The notes under the pieces were generated by a model. The model had not been told where the DNA came from. It ran no database searches and saw only the letters and a list, made by a program, of their open reading frames with translations. A stretch of 11,945 bases of DNA from a virus (Duplodnaviria; Heunggongvirae; Uroviricota; Caudoviricetes). Made by a program: the position numbers and the translations under genes. This document shows, piece by piece, positions 2,074-11,781 of the stretch; position 1 is the first letter of the stretch; each line of letters opens with the position of its first letter. The stretch lies in IMG/VR virus record IMGVR_UViG_2681813261_000018; one strand, 5' to 3'.

Positions 2074-2099
2074 AACATTGATAATGGCGGTCACAATTT

Positions 2100-2119
2100 G
2101 ATTCTTTTCTATAAGAATC
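2100..2119 (+). terminator. AT-rich hairpin after the 244-aa gene (weak terminator candidate)
   Basis: GATTCTT / AAGAATC 7-bp arms with a 6-nt loop; no T-run follows. Confidence 0.3.
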
Positions 2120-2209
2120 CGTTGATCGCCACTACTCCCCTTCCATACCCGCAATCACATCCTTAAATATCAATAAGTTATAGTTGTTTATACAATCAAG
2201 AAAACAACT

Positions 2210-2940
2210 GAATAACAGATCAACGAAACATCAACGCTTTCACCCGATTTGGTCTAAAAAATTGACGTTTTCACACATCACTGCTTATACCCGTAATTCT
2301 ACGCAGCAGACAGCGCCACAGCGTCCAATTTTCACCACAGACGACCCAACACACTACCAACAAAAACACACGCTCAAAATCGCTCCCGTTGCGTTACACA
2401 ACCATATAAACAACTTATTTTCAGGCATAACAAAACAACTAAATAACACACATGCCATTCCCCAAAACAACCAACCTCTTTATGTCAGGCTACCGAAAAG
2501 ACCCACCTCTTCTCCCCAGGCTACCGGACAACCAACCTAACTTTCACAGGCAATCCGAAAACATTCATACGCGCGATACCCACGACACGCCATTACCCAA
2601 ACAGCGAAGAAACATCAGAATCACTGAAACCCCAACGAAGCCTGTAACCGCAAGGTTTCTCTCAATCCCTAAAGACACGAAACATAACAATCACGGGAAA
2701 CGCCATTACCCAATACACGAATAACTACAAAAGCCTTTCACACACTCCAGACAAACAACTCAAACACAATAACGAAAGGAATCGCCCACCTGCCATTACT
2801 CCATACACGGAGAAGAACAATCACCAAAACGACGAGAACACCCCATAGAAGAACCACCGCAAAACTAACGAAACCACATACACCGACAGGGAAAACAACA
2901 CACCCAATTCACCAACAGAAATAGTCGCCGTATAGAGCGT
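2210..2940 (+). other. A+C-rich, G-poor non-coding tract of about 730 bp with degenerate internal repeats
   Basis: Counting by eye in 60-nt blocks gives about 5-18 percent G and about 75-80 percent A+C on the plus strand. GCCATTACCCAA-type motifs recur near 2454, 2590, 2702 and 2791. The track ORFs here are proline/threonine-rich and lack ribosome-binding sites. Confidence 0.5.
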
Positions 2941-3134
2941 TCTGGAAGGAGTGAGCATTAACGCCTATAGAGAGGTTGAGACAGATAAAACACGAAGAAA
3001 ACACAACATGTATAGCGAACAAGACAGGTATGTATAAGTGGGGAGGGAATGAGGGGTGTCGCCTCCTTTTTCGTATTTATTCAACTCCTGATTTTATCCC
3101 CCGTAACACCCCTACGGTCAGCCTTCGGTCCATA

Positions 3135-3265
3135 CAGGGAAAAGGTTGCATCCCGCTACAGAAACGGCTGGGTTGCCTTCGGGGAACGGCTGGGGATTTT
3201 CAGGGAAACGGTCGAGTTGCCTGTGTGGATTTCGGGAAAAGGCTCGATGCCGGTTCAGAAACGGC
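3135..3265. repeat. iteron-like direct repeat cluster 1 (core GGGAAACGGC / CAGAAACGGC; full unit about 22 bp)
   Basis: Core copies start near 3135, 3158, 3181, 3201, 3233 and 3256, spaced 20-32 bp. Extended units CTGGGGATTTTCAGGGAAACGG (3190-3211) and GTGTGGATTTCGGGAAAAGGC (3222-3243). Confidence 0.55.
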
Positions 3266-3584
3266 GGCGTACCGGTATAGCGAGAGGGAGAGTTGCGGCT
3301 GTCCACCTGTAATGTGCGGGAAGAAGAGAGGCGCTCACGTGCAGGCGAACTTACTTACCGCTGGATTCCCTCTGAATGCCCAGCTACAGCGTAATTGTGC
3401 CAGACAGTCAGCGGGTCACAATCGATTTCAGTAGGTTTTCGGGGAGAGGATTATTCTGCCCACCAGCCACCTTCGGCCACTAAATCAGAATAATGTAAAA
3501 AGTGTACTCGGTACTGAACCTGAAAACTCACTGCCAAAACCACATTCACCGGAATAAAATCCTTTTTCGCCTGTGCGTTATTGC

Positions 3585-3616
3585 GATAATAACACCATCA
3601 AGAAAACATGTTGTTT
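3585..3616 (+). promoter_or_regulatory. shared promoter/leader element (GATAAT + AACACCATCAAGAAAACATGTTGTTT)
   Basis: Matches the elements at 947-981, 5725-5757 and 6209-6240. The ATG at 3608 sits inside the conserved palindrome and is therefore not taken as the gene start. Confidence 0.55.
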
Positions 3617-8054: not shown

Positions 8055-8199
8055 NNNNNNNNNNNNNNNNNNNNNNNNNNNNNNNNNNNNNNNNNNNNNN
8101 NNNNNNNNNNNNNNNNNNNNNNNNNNNNNNNNNNNNNNNNNNNNNNNNNNNNNNNNNNNNNNNNNNNNNNNNNNNNNNNNNNNNNNNNNNNNNNNNNNN
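8055..8199. other. masked / undetermined sequence (145 N)
   Basis: Run of N; content cannot be assessed. Confidence 1.
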
Positions 8200-8231: not shown

Positions 8232-8575
8232 NNNNNNNNNNNNNNNNNNNNNNNNNNNNNNNNNNNNNNNNNNNNNNNNNNNNNNNNNNNNNNNNNNNNN
8301 NNNNNNNNNNNNNNNNNNNNNNNNNNNNNNNNNNNNNNNNNNNNNNNNNNNNNNNNNNNNNNNNNNNNNNNNNNNNNNNNNNNNNNNNNNNNNNNNNNNN
8401 NNNNNNNNNNNNNNNNNNNNNNNNNNNNNNNNNNNNNNNNNNNNNNNNNNNNNNNNNNNNNNNNNNNNNNNNNNNNNNNNNNNNNNNNNNNNNNNNNNNN
8501 NNNNNNNNNNNNNNNNNNNNNNNNNNNNNNNNNNNNNNNNNNNNNNNNNNNNNNNNNNNNNNNNNNNNNNNNNNN
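8232..8575. other. masked / undetermined sequence (344 N)
   Basis: Run of N; content cannot be assessed. Confidence 1.
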
Positions 8576-8645: not shown

Positions 8646-9170
8646 TTAAAATGGAAGGATTCGTTCAACCCAATCGAAGAAAACAAGTATTTTTCTGCCG
8701 TCTTCTAACTTAAGAGTGACCTGGCAAGCATCAACGCCTCTTGACACCCCTTCTATTTCACGACCGTCTGTCATGTAGACCCTTATAGATTGGTCGTTTT
8801 GATAAGCCTTGCGACATATCGCAAAAAAGTCACGGCGTGATGGCTGATTGTCAACATAGTCTGGATGTATTGTTAGCCTACCTTTGAACTCGCGAGCAAT
8901 GCCATCGATTACACCTGATTCAATTGTGCTAATGCGCTCAAGTGGGAGTCTTATACGATTTTCTTTATCATATGGAATCGGGCATAAATCTAGCTTATTG
9001 CGTGAAGGCATTGTCCCCTGAACGTACATGCAAAACACCTGACCGTCTTCAAGCGTGACTCTTACAGGAATGTTGTTCTTCCGCCAGAACATAAGTATGT
9101 TCTCAGCATGTTCGTAGTCTCGCGGCCAGACTTCAGCCGGTATGCCGTAGGTGATGTCCAATGTTTTCAT
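8646..9170 (-). CDS. hypothetical protein (174 aa) with an internally repeated [VL]-x-[LM]-x-DG-[QR] motif
   Basis: ATG at 9170 overlaps the upstream stop codon (ATGA). Motifs VTLEDGQVF, VYMTDGREI and LKLEDGRKILVF suggest a repeated small beta-rich fold. Confidence 0.65.
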   Translation of the reverse strand: MKTLDITYGIPAEVWPRDYEHAENILMFWRKNNIPVRVTLEDGQVFCMYVQGTMPSRNKLDLCPIPYDKENRIRLPLERISTIESGVIDGIAREFKGRLTIHPDYVDNQPSRRDFFAICRKAYQNDQSIRVYMTDGREIEGVSRGVDACQVTLKLEDGRKILVFFDWVERILPF

Positions 9171-9760
9171 TCTGATACTCTTAGAGGTGTTTTCAGCAAC
9201 CCAAATTTAAATTCTTTGTTACCAACGACAAAGAAGGGAACCTCAACATAGATTTTTTTATCGACGGATTTAGAGTTCGCTGTTTTCTGTATGTCACGAA
9301 CGATACGTTTTGAGGTATTTTCATCGATAAACAATACCTTTCCACTTGTATTCCCTTCAGCCTTGGCGTAAGTAACGATAGGGTCTTCATTGCCAACCCT
9401 AATGTTTACTTGGCAACCTGTTGTAGCCATTTCATCACAGTAAAGTGTGCCGTCTTGAACTTCTAAAACAATTCCAGATGGCTTCATGGCTTCGTCAGAG
9501 CTTACATTAACGTTTTCTGGTACAGCGGTCCCGTTAATTTGCAACCGTAATCTTTCTTTTCCTGCATTAAGTATTGTTTCTTCTGCGTTATCTGAGAATC
9601 TGAACCAGACTGGTTGAATCAGACCTCGTGATTCGTATTTTAGTACGTCTTCAGAAGTATACATGCTGTACGTTTTTTGCATGTCGGAGACGATATCTGA
9701 CAACGCATTTGCGGAAAATGACGAGAGGTATATACAAGCAAGAAGTAACGAACGTTTCAT
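9167..9760 (-). CDS. hypothetical exported protein (197 aa) with N-terminal signal peptide
   Basis: N-terminus MKRSLLLACIYLSSFSANA-LSD: basic n-region, hydrophobic core, and an A-x-A signal-peptidase I motif at residues 17-19. Stop codon overlaps the start of the downstream gene. Confidence 0.65.
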   Translation of the reverse strand: MKRSLLLACIYLSSFSANALSDIVSDMQKTYSMYTSEDVLKYESRGLIQPVWFRFSDNAEETILNAGKERLRLQINGTAVPENVNVSSDEAMKPSGIVLEVQDGTLYCDEMATTGCQVNIRVGNEDPIVTYAKAEGNTSGKVLFIDENTSKRIVRDIQKTANSKSVDKKIYVEVPFFVVGNKEFKFGLLKTPLRVSE

Positions 9761-9859
9761 TTTTATACAGCGATTATTGCAAAGTAGAATTATAAATATC
9801 CAATAGTCTCAAACGATAAGTTTTCAACTGTAAATAGCAGACGTGTTTCTCTAAAAGCT

Positions 9860-9885
9860 GTGCGGCAAAGGCGTTGTTGCCGCAC
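9860..9885. terminator. 9-bp-stem hairpin in the 180-bp gap between the 92-aa and 197-aa genes
   Basis: GTGCGGCAA / TTGCCGCAC with an 8-nt loop; on the minus strand it is followed by AGCTTTT. May separate two transcription units or act as an attenuator. Confidence 0.4.
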
Positions 9886-9940
9886 TCTGTCTATTAGCTC
9901 TTCAAGTCTGGCAATTCTGAAATTGACTAAGAATCCAATA

Positions 9941-10219
9941 TTACGGCAGTTTGCTTAGAATTTGCTCTAAATCTTCCTTTGTCATATTAGAGTTCTCATA
10001 GATGCGCATGATTTTCTCACGAGCCTTAGCAGAGACTCCAACGGCAGATGAAACTTTGTCAAATTCAGCCATTGTCATCGCTTCCAGAATGGTATTGATA
10101 ACTTCAGCCTTAGACATTTTGATGTTTTTTTCTTTTAGTTTCATTTGAAACTTTCCAAGTTTGTCATTGGCCTTATCGGACAATGCCACCTGACAATAAG
10201 TTGTTTTCTTTTCGCTCAT
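9941..10219 (-). CDS. hypothetical small protein (92 aa), translationally coupled to the helicase
   Basis: ATG lies 2 nt after the helicase TAG stop. Product MSEKKTTYCQVALSDKANDKLGKFQMKLKEKNIKMSKAEVINTILEA..., rich in K/E. Confidence 0.65.
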   Translation of the reverse strand: MSEKKTTYCQVALSDKANDKLGKFQMKLKEKNIKMSKAEVINTILEAMTMAEFDKVSSAVGVSAKAREKIMRIYENSNMTKEDLEQILSKLP

Positions 10220-10221
10220 AA

Positions 10222-11781
10222 CTAATCTCGTTTCAGAACTCCAAAATCGAATGCTCCATCAATAGGCAATACACCTTCTGCAAAGCCAGGTGTGGTGTCG
10301 ATGATGTGTTTTCGCTCATAAGAGTGAGACAACAGGTATTTGTTGCTAATGTCAATGAAATCAGTGATAAAACACACGTTTGCCTGATTTTTTTTGGCTC
10401 GTAAGCCACGACCGACACGCTGCCTCATTTCAACTTCTGCTTTCCCACCACCAGCAAGAATGACCGCACCAACGCTTGGCACATCAACACCGACATCCAG
10501 AATAGTCGAGCCTATTAAAACATCTATTTCTCCAGACGCTAAACTGTTCAGCTTTGCTTGCCTTGTCGCCTGGTTAGATTCCCCATAGATGAAATCAACT
10601 CTAAGACCTGACTCCTTCATCATCTCCATCAGGATTTGCCCGTGGCGTTTAAGACGAACCAGAGTCATGCAGTTGAGTGAATGTTGCTTATAAAGCAATG
10701 CCTCGCGCACTATGGCCTCGTTACGTCCCAAATTATACACGATCCCCAACTGATAAGCCTTTTGGTAGGCGGTGCTCATACCAACTCTAAAATTGAGGTG
10801 TTTGTTGGCAAGTTCGGCCTTGATTCTGGCCTCGTCTGGCTTGTAGGCAACTTTATGATAAAGGAAGTACGGCTTTGCCAGAATGCCTCGATCAATCAGG
10901 TACTTTTCTGTGACTTTAATTTCAATTCGCCCGGCCACCGCCATCAGGCGCATGTTGGCTTCCGTCGAATCCTTCATGAACGGCGTGGCTGTAAGCGCCA
11001 GACGATAGTCTGCGTTCACACATAATCTGGCGATGTCATAGAAATTTGAGCCTGAAGACTCATGCGCCTCTTCCAGAATAAGAAGAGAGACACTTGAAAG
11101 GAAGCGTTTCACCAACTCCCGACGTTTGAGGTGGTAGCTTTTCTTATCTGGTGTTGCATCGCGTGGTGGTTCTTCGAGGAAACTTGCAAGAGTTTGAACT
11201 GTAGCGACGTTGATATGTCGTGATACCTGGAACTCACCCGAGCCAATGACTCCAACCTTTTGGTCTTTTAACCACGGTTCGCCATTTTCGGCGCGGTAGT
11301 CGATGGATCTCTGGAAGTTTTCGGCCATTTGAAACATCAGAACAGAGCGGGTTGTTAAAAATAATGTCATTCGACCGATACGTGCAGCTGCTTTGCAGGC
11401 AACGTTAGATTTCCCGCCACCAGTAGCGATCTGCGCAATCATCATTCCCTCTCGAACCAGTGTTTCCACAGTCTGATCCTGATACGCATAATCAGGATTG
11501 TATGGGAATGGGTTAACCGCAGGATTTGGTTTACCAAGCGCCGGGGCTTTGTCTTTGCGGATATGAACACATTTGATGCCCGCCTTGTTCAATTTCGCCG
11601 CTACAGGCTTGGCAAAGCCTGCAGGGAACGAGTTTTTACTCCAGTTGAACATTGTGCTTGTGCCCTTCCAGTCGCCAGTCTCGACTTCGTAGCTCAACAT
11701 CTGTTGCACCAGTTGCTTTACCTTGTCATCTGCGCCAGAAATAAGCGCATTAACTGCGTTAGATACAATCCGAACAGTCAT
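10222..11781 (-). CDS. superfamily-2 helicase (DEAD/DEAH / ResIII-like), 519 aa, with an N-terminal extension of about 100 aa of unknown function
   Basis: Ordered helicase motifs: Walker A QIATGGGKSNV; motif II LILEEAHES (DEAH variant); motif III LTATPF; motif VI QRVGRGLRA. ATG at 11781 with AGGAAAGAGG just upstream. Longest ORF in the window. Confidence 0.85.
   Translation of the reverse strand: MTVRIVSNAVNALISGADDKVKQLVQQMLSYEVETGDWKGTSTMFNWSKNSFPAGFAKPVAAKLNKAGIKCVHIRKDKAPALGKPNPAVNPFPYNPDYAYQDQTVETLVREGMMIAQIATGGGKSNVACKAAARIGRMTLFLTTRSVLMFQMAENFQRSIDYRAENGEPWLKDQKVGVIGSGEFQVSRHINVATVQTLASFLEEPPRDATPDKKSYHLKRRELVKRFLSSVSLLILEEAHESSGSNFYDIARLCVNADYRLALTATPFMKDSTEANMRLMAVAGRIEIKVTEKYLIDRGILAKPYFLYHKVAYKPDEARIKAELANKHLNFRVGMSTAYQKAYQLGIVYNLGRNEAIVREALLYKQHSLNCMTLVRLKRHGQILMEMMKESGLRVDFIYGESNQATRQAKLNSLASGEIDVLIGSTILDVGVDVPSVGAVILAGGGKAEVEMRQRVGRGLRAKKNQANVCFITDFIDISNKYLLSHSYERKHIIDTTPGFAEGVLPIDGAFDFGVLKRD

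Follow-up and report, generated by a model that had tools for sequence, protein, structure and literature searches.

A phage-plasmid branch of the FljA family with a predicted tandem Sm/Hfq-like architecture

FljA is familiar from textbooks as part of flagellar phase variation in Salmonella, and Hin, its partner in that system, is related to phage invertases. CsrA/FliW and FlbT are, like FljA, small proteins that bind a flagellin mRNA leader and block translation, although they belong to unrelated folds and families and gave no sequence or structural match to the protein described here. FljA is reported to bind an operator region of the fliC mRNA and to inhibit translation, with rapid decay of the mRNA to follow (PMC4122451, citing Yamamoto and Kutsukake 2006; PMC2652032). 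Pfam describes the family (PF03614 Flag1_repress, FljA) as a "Repressor of phase-1 flagellin". Our search of the PDB found no solved structure of FljA, and our literature search found no paper linking FljA to the Sm/Hfq fold, to SSU5 or to phage-plasmids.

We have analyzed an 11,945-nucleotide stretch of viral DNA (IMG/VR record IMGVR_UViG_2681813261_000018; the window), which encodes a relative of FljA in a different genetic setting. The window DNA matches 243 E. coli genomes, always in plasmids (~105-115 kb) and never in chromosomes, and among phages it matches SSU5 and Cyrano (pLF82). The best match is a 106-kb "pLF82"-type plasmid with terminase, portal, capsid, tail, replication and ParB genes. 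As judged from these matches, the window is part of a phage-plasmid of the SSU5/pHCM2/pMT1/pLF82 type. The local order comprises ParB genes and, divergently, a helicase gene, orf92, a variable slot, the FljA-like gene, a hairpin and orf216, with the following features:

10222-11781, minus strand: DEAD/DEAH helicase (ORF, Pfam, PHROG), a syntenic upstream gene
9941-10219, minus strand: orf92 (ORF call), a syntenic upstream gene
9159-9940, minus strand: exchangeable cassette slot, from orf92 to codon 5 of the FljA-like gene, delimited by junction alignment
9167-9760, minus strand: ORF for a 197-aa exported accessory protein, with a signal peptide at residues 1-19 (9704-9760)
9167-9170, minus strand: ATGA start/stop overlap (4 nt) of the 197-aa ORF with the FljA-like ORF
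8646-9170, minus strand: FljA-family (PF03614) gene, an ORF of 174 aa plus stop codon
8604-8633, minus strand: terminator-like hairpin, AATAACCGG-loop-CCGGTTATT plus ATTTTA, after the FljA-like stop codon

The 174-aa reading frame picked out by the initial annotation is real and lies on the minus strand, but its membership in the FljA family had been missed. The protein matches PF03614 over its full length (E 9.1e-81; 270.1 bits against a cut-off of 24), with residues 5-171 aligned to positions 1-170 of the 170-position profile. It also matches PHROG 1444 (E 5.5e-98), which is labeled "transcriptional repressor", and carries the PGAP/RefSeq label "transcriptional regulator". When compared with an annotated FljA (L003:3992-4531, "phase 1 flagellin gene repressor FljA", from the hin-fljB-fljA locus of a Salmonella plasmid), it aligns end to end with 34% identity over 175 columns (E 2e-34). 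The blocks common to both proteins are DI[ST]YG..AE[IV]WPRDY, IPVR, PSRRD[FY]F.IC, GV[DN]ACQV and FDWV.RI. These alignments identify the 174-aa protein, at the level of its sequence, as a phage-plasmid branch of the FljA family. NCBIfam gave no match for it or its small neighbors, the PADLOC defence models gave none for it, the 197-aa protein, orf92 or orf216, and Rfam and tRNA scans of the window found nothing.

The comparison with FljA as found in Salmonella enterica, on pBSSB1 and in the flagellar phase-variation islets of E. coli reveals both likenesses and differences. The two share the same Pfam family over their full length (174 versus 179 aa), and the present protein would resemble FljA in being a small regulator that acts in trans and can travel on mobile DNA. 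Unlike FljA, however, it is less basic (pI 6.2 versus 8.9), and its gene lies beside a helicase gene, orf92, a cargo gene and orf216 rather than a linked flagellin gene or Hin-type invertase. In fact, the window contains neither a flagellin nor an invertase gene, and the first 100 kb of the 106-kb plasmid that matches it likewise gave none, so that the hallmark of FljA in phase variation, co-transcription with an alternative flagellin gene (fljB/flk type) and usually a position beside an invertase, is not seen here. A further difference from FljA is that the gene belongs to the core backbone of ~100-115-kb phage-plasmids, including those of hosts without motility.

Using tblastn, we found the FljA-like gene in 835 plasmid records (Klebsiella 345, Escherichia 229, Enterobacter 92, Yersinia 62, these being Yersinia pestis, Salmonella 60, and others). 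Nearly all of these plasmids are non-mobilizable (797 of 835), and the records listed are mostly ~100-115 kb in size. The adjoining helicase gene gives genus counts of 346 for Klebsiella, 228 for Escherichia, 92 for Enterobacter and 62 for Yersinia. Since these counts match almost one to one, the FljA-like gene behaves as a backbone gene. All seven phage-plasmid loci compared (L002 and L004-L009) share one gene order, namely helicase, orf92, slot, FljA-like gene and orf216, and the FljA-like gene is thus a core syntenic gene of phage-plasmids of this type. In divergent Klebsiella phage-plasmids the position is likewise kept, while the helicase is 67-72% identical and the FljA-like protein 25-36%, which shows that the FljA-like gene evolves faster than its neighbors. 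The dN/dS values among the E. coli, SSU5, pMT1 and Klebsiella copies are 0.10-0.12, rough figures given that dS is near saturation (1.3-1.5), and point to purifying selection on the gene. Klebsiella pneumoniae and Yersinia pestis are non-motile. Conservation of the gene in their plasmids could reflect recent host jumps instead of a non-flagellar function.

The family around this gene is small. An exhaustive HMMER search of 1.84 billion representatives returned 28 matches, forming about six full-length clusters at 50% identity: the present clade, classical FljA (1141 members, Salmonella), a second clade from Klebsiella plasmids and three metagenomic clusters. Most of the diversity of the FljA family is therefore found on plasmids or in metagenomes. 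We note that word-indexed searches, with either the single protein or a 25-sequence profile, recovered the phage-plasmid clade only, and that it took the exhaustive HMMER search or tblastn to reach classical FljA.

Structural analysis of the protein was based on an AlphaFold2 (AF2) model with a pLDDT of 81 and a pTM of 0.80, computed from a shallow 25-sequence alignment. The elements of the protein, with the three motifs discussed below, are:

9114-9158, minus strand: N-terminal peptide DITYGIPAEVWPRDY (residues 5-19), conserved and predicted to be disordered
8913-9113, minus strand: predicted N-terminal Sm-like barrel (residues 20-86; AF2, block pLDDT 84-94)
8649-8837, minus strand: predicted C-terminal Sm/Hfq-like barrel (residues 112-174; AF2 secondary structure)
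9039-9059, minus strand: motif 1, VTLEDGQ (residues 38-44), β1-β2 turn of the predicted N-terminal barrel
8760-8780, minus strand: motif 2, VYMTDGR (residues 131-137), β1-β2 turn of the predicted C-terminal barrel
8694-8714, minus strand: motif 3, LKLEDGR (residues 153-159), β3-β4 turn of the predicted C-terminal barrel, not conserved

In this model, the N-terminal barrel consists of a helix (20-31) and strands at 35-40, 45-54, 59-63, 72-76 and 80-85, and the C-terminal barrel of a helix (113-124) and strands at 128-133, 138-146, 150-154, 160-164 and 168-173. Both barrels show the same order of one helix and five strands, with near-identical element lengths, and this arrangement of an N-terminal helix followed by a five-stranded bent β-barrel is that of the Sm/LSm/Hfq fold. 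In a Foldseek search against the PDB, the first 26 matches were all Hfq chains, each covering one barrel; the best structural matches were thus to Hfq and not to WYL domains. At the sequence level, the Pfam models for Hfq (PF17209; 19.9 bits versus a cut-off of 27, E 5.6e-4, residues 123-165) and LSM (PF01423; 15.2 bits versus 23.4) both matched below their gathering thresholds. No PDB chain matched the protein sequence at E values up to 10, the C-terminal barrel gave no BLASTP match to E. coli Hfq, and a fold search of BFVD gave no meaningful full-length match for the model. Because there is no sequence-detectable relative in the PDB and the Pfam matches are sub-threshold, the assignment of the fold rests on a prediction from a shallow alignment. 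The protein is thus predicted to contain two Sm/Hfq-like barrels in one chain, whereas Hfq and the Sm/LSm proteins have one barrel per subunit; at the sequence level, its membership among them is not detectable. As a conjecture, a trimer of such tandem barrels could form a pseudo-hexameric Sm ring.

Conservation is unevenly spread over this architecture. Across the 25 aligned homologs, residues T7, Y8, G9, P11, E13, V14, P16, R17, D18 and Y19 are invariant, and the N-terminal peptide, DITYGxPAEVWPRDY, does not vary within the phage-plasmid clade. Classical FljA retains it as DISYGREAEIWPRDY, while it is missing from three further clades (P0116, P0112 and P0119); the AF2 pLDDT falls below 50 at residues 1-14. 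The residues that are invariant in all clades, by comparison, sit in the C-terminal barrel (D114, F116, G141, G145, D166, W167, V168 and I171), and because they lie there this barrel may form the functional core of the protein. With respect to charge, the protein (pI 6.2) and its clade (median pI 6.9) are well below FljA (8.9) and the Hfq core (10.0).

The pattern [VL]-x-[LM]-x-DG-[QR] is matched at residues 38, 131 and 153, and had been described by the initial annotation as a threefold repeat that suggested small barrel or hairpin units, which often bind nucleic acids or ligands. In 200,000 shuffled versions of the protein, at least two full matches to this pattern, which was defined after the fact, were never obtained, and at least three DG[QR] occurred in 21. 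Since shuffled proteins almost never reproduce the motif counts, the recurrence is not an effect of composition, although the pattern was chosen post hoc. The three matches are therefore real, but they do not represent three equivalent units. The 25 homologs conserve only motifs 1 and 2, with motif 3 in a variable stretch of the alignment and, in the model, at a different turn (β3-β4); the DG positions read NN, YG and NG in genuine FljA. Alignment of the N-terminal and C-terminal halves with hhalign detected no internal duplication at the sequence level, giving only a 13-column match (probability 1.6%, E 0.031). In an element-by-element alignment of secondary structure, the turn of motif 2 would be equivalent to the N28-G29 turn of Hfq, and motif 1 would correspond to the same turn in the other barrel. 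On the model, the "repeat" is best described as two structurally equivalent turns plus one incidental turn. Structure prediction, the check that had been proposed, does give a repeated barrel fold, and the suggested barrel hairpins agree with the AF2 model, the Foldseek matches and the FljA family, with two units in place of three. In addition, motif 1 aligns with the stretch of FljA that contains A46, and an A46T substitution in FljA is reported to lower the frequency of phase variation (PMC4122451).

Expression data exist for a close relative. Cyrano is the phage-plasmid of the adherent-invasive strain (AIEC) LF82, pLF82, and its CYRAN_114 is 99.4% identical to the window protein. The log2 expression of CYRAN_114 is 4.16 / 4.19 in overnight LB, 7.07-7.39 in B1 and 6.87-7.07 in B6, and 8.06-8.11 in MB1 and 7.98-8.07 in MB6 (PMC9928086 Table S1); going by the column names, we take B to stand for bacteria in medium and MB for bacteria within macrophages. 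By our own calculation, the LB value of 18.1 is ~1.9 times a prophage background of ~9.5, which was derived from CYRAN_117 (114.5, stated to be 12-fold above background). The neighboring orf216 (CYRAN_113) is almost silent in LF82 (PMC9928086 Table S1). Because the lytic cycle of Cyrano is repressed in macrophages (PMC9928086), where CYRAN_114 is transcribed, the FljA-like gene is expressed in the plasmid-prophage state. LF82 makes FliC filaments and swims (PMC10809763). As the strain is still flagellated and motile, the FljA-like protein does not abolish FliC synthesis in laboratory conditions, which may be compatible with partial or conditional repression of fliC.

Upstream of the FljA-like gene, the initial annotation had proposed that a start codon overlapping the stop of an exported protein implied fixed stoichiometry, with a cytoplasmic protein paired with a periplasmic one. 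The ATGA overlap is present at 9167-9170, and the signal peptide on the 197-aa protein also holds up in a rule-based assessment (positive n-region, hydrophobic h-region of 10-15 residues, small residues at -3/-1). The sequence reads MKR / SLLLACIYLSSF / SANA followed by LSD, as expected for Sec export and signal peptidase I, and homologs down to 45% identity keep the n-, h- and c-regions, the A-x-A motif and invariant C108 and C116. A lipoprotein processed by signal peptidase II was considered and rejected, C9 being too near the N-terminus and absent in three homologs (P0092, P0095 and P0096). The protein matches PHROG 18942, a family with no assigned function, and has no match in Pfam; its AF2 model (pLDDT 54) was too poor for a fold search.

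The proposed pairing does not survive comparison across genomes. The 197-aa protein is present in 65 plasmid records versus 835 for the FljA-like gene, a distribution at odds with an obligate two-gene module. When aligned with Cyrano, the window shows 99% identity downstream of GACATCACCTACGG and no relationship upstream of it, which puts the beginning of homology precisely at codon 5 of the FljA-like ORF (GAC ATC ACC TAC GG). Consequently, the ATGA overlap is part of an interchangeable cassette, as are the start codon and the ribosome-binding site. The same slot is occupied by an unrelated 140-aa lipoprotein gene in SSU5 and pMT1, an opposite-strand gene in Klebsiella P3, two other genes in Cyrano, and an extra gene plus a 53%-identical homolog of the 197-aa protein in pNT1N28, and Cyrano encodes its 99.4% identical FljA-like protein without this neighbor. 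Translational coupling into a stoichiometric pair could draw on the overlap here, the 1-nt overlap in the 53%-identical lineage (pNT1N28; L007) and an SD-like AAGAG within the upstream ORF. However, the recombination boundary falls at codon 5, and the two products would occupy different cell compartments. Tight spacing does recur, with a 4-nt gap in pMT1 and SSU5, but compact phage operons often show it, and it is no sign that the proteins are partners. We regard such a pair as scarcely credible and as largely refuted by the distribution of the two genes. The overlapping exported protein is, as far as the aligned loci indicate, unrelated and exchangeable cargo whose pairing with the FljA-like protein is incidental. 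The original observation on the sequence was thus real but over-read, and is mostly clarified by the protein being a member of a known family with an incidental exported neighbor.

We consider it probable that the protein is an FljA-type, Sm-fold, RNA-binding translational repressor that serves the phage-plasmid and whose target is probably not only fliC. It would be a small cytoplasmic protein with two Sm/Hfq-like β-barrels behind a conserved, flexible N-terminal peptide. By homology to Salmonella FljA, it would bind specific mRNAs, one or a few in number, at their 5' leader, and this binding would block the initiation of translation and leave the mRNA exposed to decay. The RNA pocket would be formed by the invariant C-terminal barrel (G141, G145, D166-W167-V168), and the main target would be a transcript other than, or besides, fliC. 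We take this view of the target because conservation of the gene is just as strong where the host lacks functional flagella, and because the LF82 lysogen makes FliC. That the protein binds RNA, that it represses translation and what its target would be are all points we infer. FljA is specific for one mRNA, in contrast to Hfq, which serves as a global chaperone. The charge of the clade, much less basic than typical RNA binders (median pI 6.9), counts against an RNA repressor. When the fliC leader of E. coli K-12 (-75 to +30) was compared with 100 kb of the phage-plasmid, the best match (22.3 bits) was below the shuffled mean (24.4) in a comparison of low power.

A true flagellin repressor, with which the phage-plasmid would shut down translation of host fliC, is in our judgment unlikely. 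The gene is equally intact in 345 Klebsiella and 62 Y. pestis plasmids, whose hosts are non-motile, no flagellin gene is linked to it, LF82 is flagellated and motile despite a transcribed, 99.4% identical copy, and identity to FljA is only 34% with a markedly different charge. Such a repressor could nevertheless benefit its carrier, for example by blocking superinfecting phages that depend on flagella, by saving energy or by hiding flagellin from innate immunity inside host cells, and the transcripts of CYRAN_114 are in fact highest inside macrophages. The shared family, with its common N-terminal and C-terminal motifs, fits this role, as do the annotations of pHCM2 and SSU5, which name the product a repressor of fliC or phase-1 flagellin, and plasmid-borne FljA (pBSSB1) silences chromosomal fliC in trans (PMC2652032).

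The database labels "transcriptional regulator" (PGAP) and "transcriptional repressor" (PHROG 1444) would instead suggest a DNA-binding protein that controls a phage-plasmid promoter, such as the one downstream for orf216. Hfq is able to bind DNA (PDB 5uk7), a promoter-like region follows the gene, and orf216 (CYRAN_113) is almost silent in LF82. We think this improbable, as the labels go back to how FljA was seen before its action on mRNA was shown, and neither Pfam nor the model reveals a helix-turn-helix (HTH) or other DNA-binding domain. The WYL regulators (DriD, BrxR, CapW and PafBC) combine HTH and WCX domains, neither of which is present here, and the PADLOC search gave no match; moreover, the downstream spacer shows no extra conservation (66-68% versus 75-82% for coding DNA). 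That the barrels bind a small ligand or a protein in place of RNA, as a WYL-like sensor or as an adaptor that sequesters a host factor, seems more improbable still. The near-neutral or acidic pI would suit such a role, and the most conserved segment is a disordered peptide of the kind typical of protein-docking motifs, but the sole characterized member of the family, FljA, binds mRNA, and the best structural matches are to Hfq, with a weak Hfq profile match, and not to WYL. A wider proposal, which we offer tentatively and think rather doubtful, is that the FljA family as a whole consists of sequence-specific, tandem Hfq-fold mRNA repressors, ancestral on SSU5-type phage-plasmids where their non-flagellin target is a transcript of the phage-plasmid or the host, and that the Salmonella repressor is a domesticated copy, much as Hin has relatives among phage invertases.

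The FljA family was already known; what appears to be new relative to the searchable literature is the predicted tandem Hfq-like architecture, together with the finding that phage-plasmids in non-motile hosts have a member of the family as a lysogeny-expressed core gene. If true, the tandem architecture would provide a structural reason for the binding of mRNA by FljA and would extend the RNA-binding repertoire of bacteria by an Sm protein that is compact, sequence-specific and made of a single chain. Phage-plasmids of the SSU5/pHCM2/pMT1 type, which carry resistance genes, occur widely among clinical Klebsiella, E. coli, Salmonella and Y. pestis. A backbone regulator expressed in lysogeny could control the maintenance of the plasmid-prophage or the physiology of the host, possibly including motility and the exposure of flagellin in pathogens such as AIEC LF82 and S. 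Typhi.

Signals for transcription around the gene pair were weak. A promoter and terminator scan gave fewer promoter-like sites than shuffled sequences, and its sole terminator call lay on the opposite strand of a hairpin at 9860-9885; given such weak output, we make no firm claim about transcription units. The spacer between the FljA-like gene and orf216 was also considered as a conserved cis target and rejected, its identity (66-68%) being lower than that of the flanking coding DNA (75-82%). The hairpin after the FljA-like stop codon fell short of the T-run threshold of the terminator scanner, and it is nearly invariant in six phage-plasmid lineages.

In phage SSU5, the copy of the FljA-like gene (L002 4043-4570) corresponds to SSU5_121, a GenBank CDS that is listed with a 148-aa product under the name "putative repressor of phase 1 flagellin". 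The reading frame is open further upstream, and extending it yields a protein of 175 aa that includes the conserved DITYG...WPRDY peptide. The start of this extended ORF lies 4 nt past a lipoprotein gene.

The interval between orf92 and the FljA-like gene (window 9159-9940) is a hot spot of cargo exchange, with at least five distinct gene contents across related phage-plasmids, several of them including genes for exported proteins or lipoproteins. On the right, the slot ends within the FljA-like ORF, at its codon 5. Two features lie at the orf92 side of the 197-aa gene for the exported neighbor:

9860-9885, GC-rich hairpin (GTGCGGCAA...TTGCCGCAC) separating orf92 from the 197-aa gene
9802-9773, minus strand, weak extended -10 promoter-like site following the hairpin

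The scanner called the hairpin as a terminator on the plus strand only, and this element may provide transcriptional insulation of the cargo cassette.

Downstream of the FljA-like gene, runs of N at 8056-8199 and 8233-8575 mask the spacer upstream of orf216 (phrog_1513) together with the 5' portion of that gene. In L001, from which the spacer was read, the FljA-like stop codon is followed by a near-invariant hairpin and T-run, and the spacer presents a promoter-like CTTG..N17..GATAAT and a strong Shine-Dalgarno sequence (TAAGGAT) upstream of orf216. Overall conservation of the spacer between the two genes is no higher than that of coding DNA. In RNA-seq data from E. coli LF82, CYRAN_113, the orf216 counterpart in the phage-plasmid Cyrano, is almost silent.

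The adjacent DEAD/DEAH helicase gene (10222-11781), which partially matches the PbeA helicase models of the PADLOC defense library (E-value 5e-23), is 90-92% conserved across genera, far above the adjacent small genes. In the plasmid collection, a homolog of this helicase with about 42% identity is found in 153 Acinetobacter plasmids, and the FljA-like gene is detectable in none of them. We therefore find the FljA-like gene to be confined to the enterobacterial branch of the helicase-bearing elements.

Elsewhere in the window, a stretch of 1.5 kb (2074-3607) is conserved, yet free of annotated features in every matching record, with a signal that peaks at about 2100-2900. Identity over this stretch is 90-99% among 214 E. 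coli phage-plasmids, and an 851-nt core, present in 839 plasmid records, retains about 70% identity between genera (Klebsiella, 431; Escherichia, 224; Enterobacter, 90; Salmonella, 49; Yersinia, zero). Its plus strand is extremely rich in A and C, with GC skew reaching -0.55 and AT skew +0.62, and contains one repeat feature:

2462-2553, degenerate 31-nt tandem units

Rfam and tRNA scans of the stretch returned no match. The stretch could encode a long non-coding RNA, serve as an origin or form an R-loop. The phage-plasmid pMT1 carries the FljA-like gene and lacks this element; consequently, the two are not obligately linked.

The window opens inside metG, a full-length, plasmid-borne gene for methionyl-tRNA synthetase, and covers its 3' end at positions 20-832. 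On the matching plasmid (region L012 24939-28230) metG adjoins a divergent apbC, as it does on the E. coli chromosome. The presence of both genes on a phage-plasmid suggests captured host DNA.
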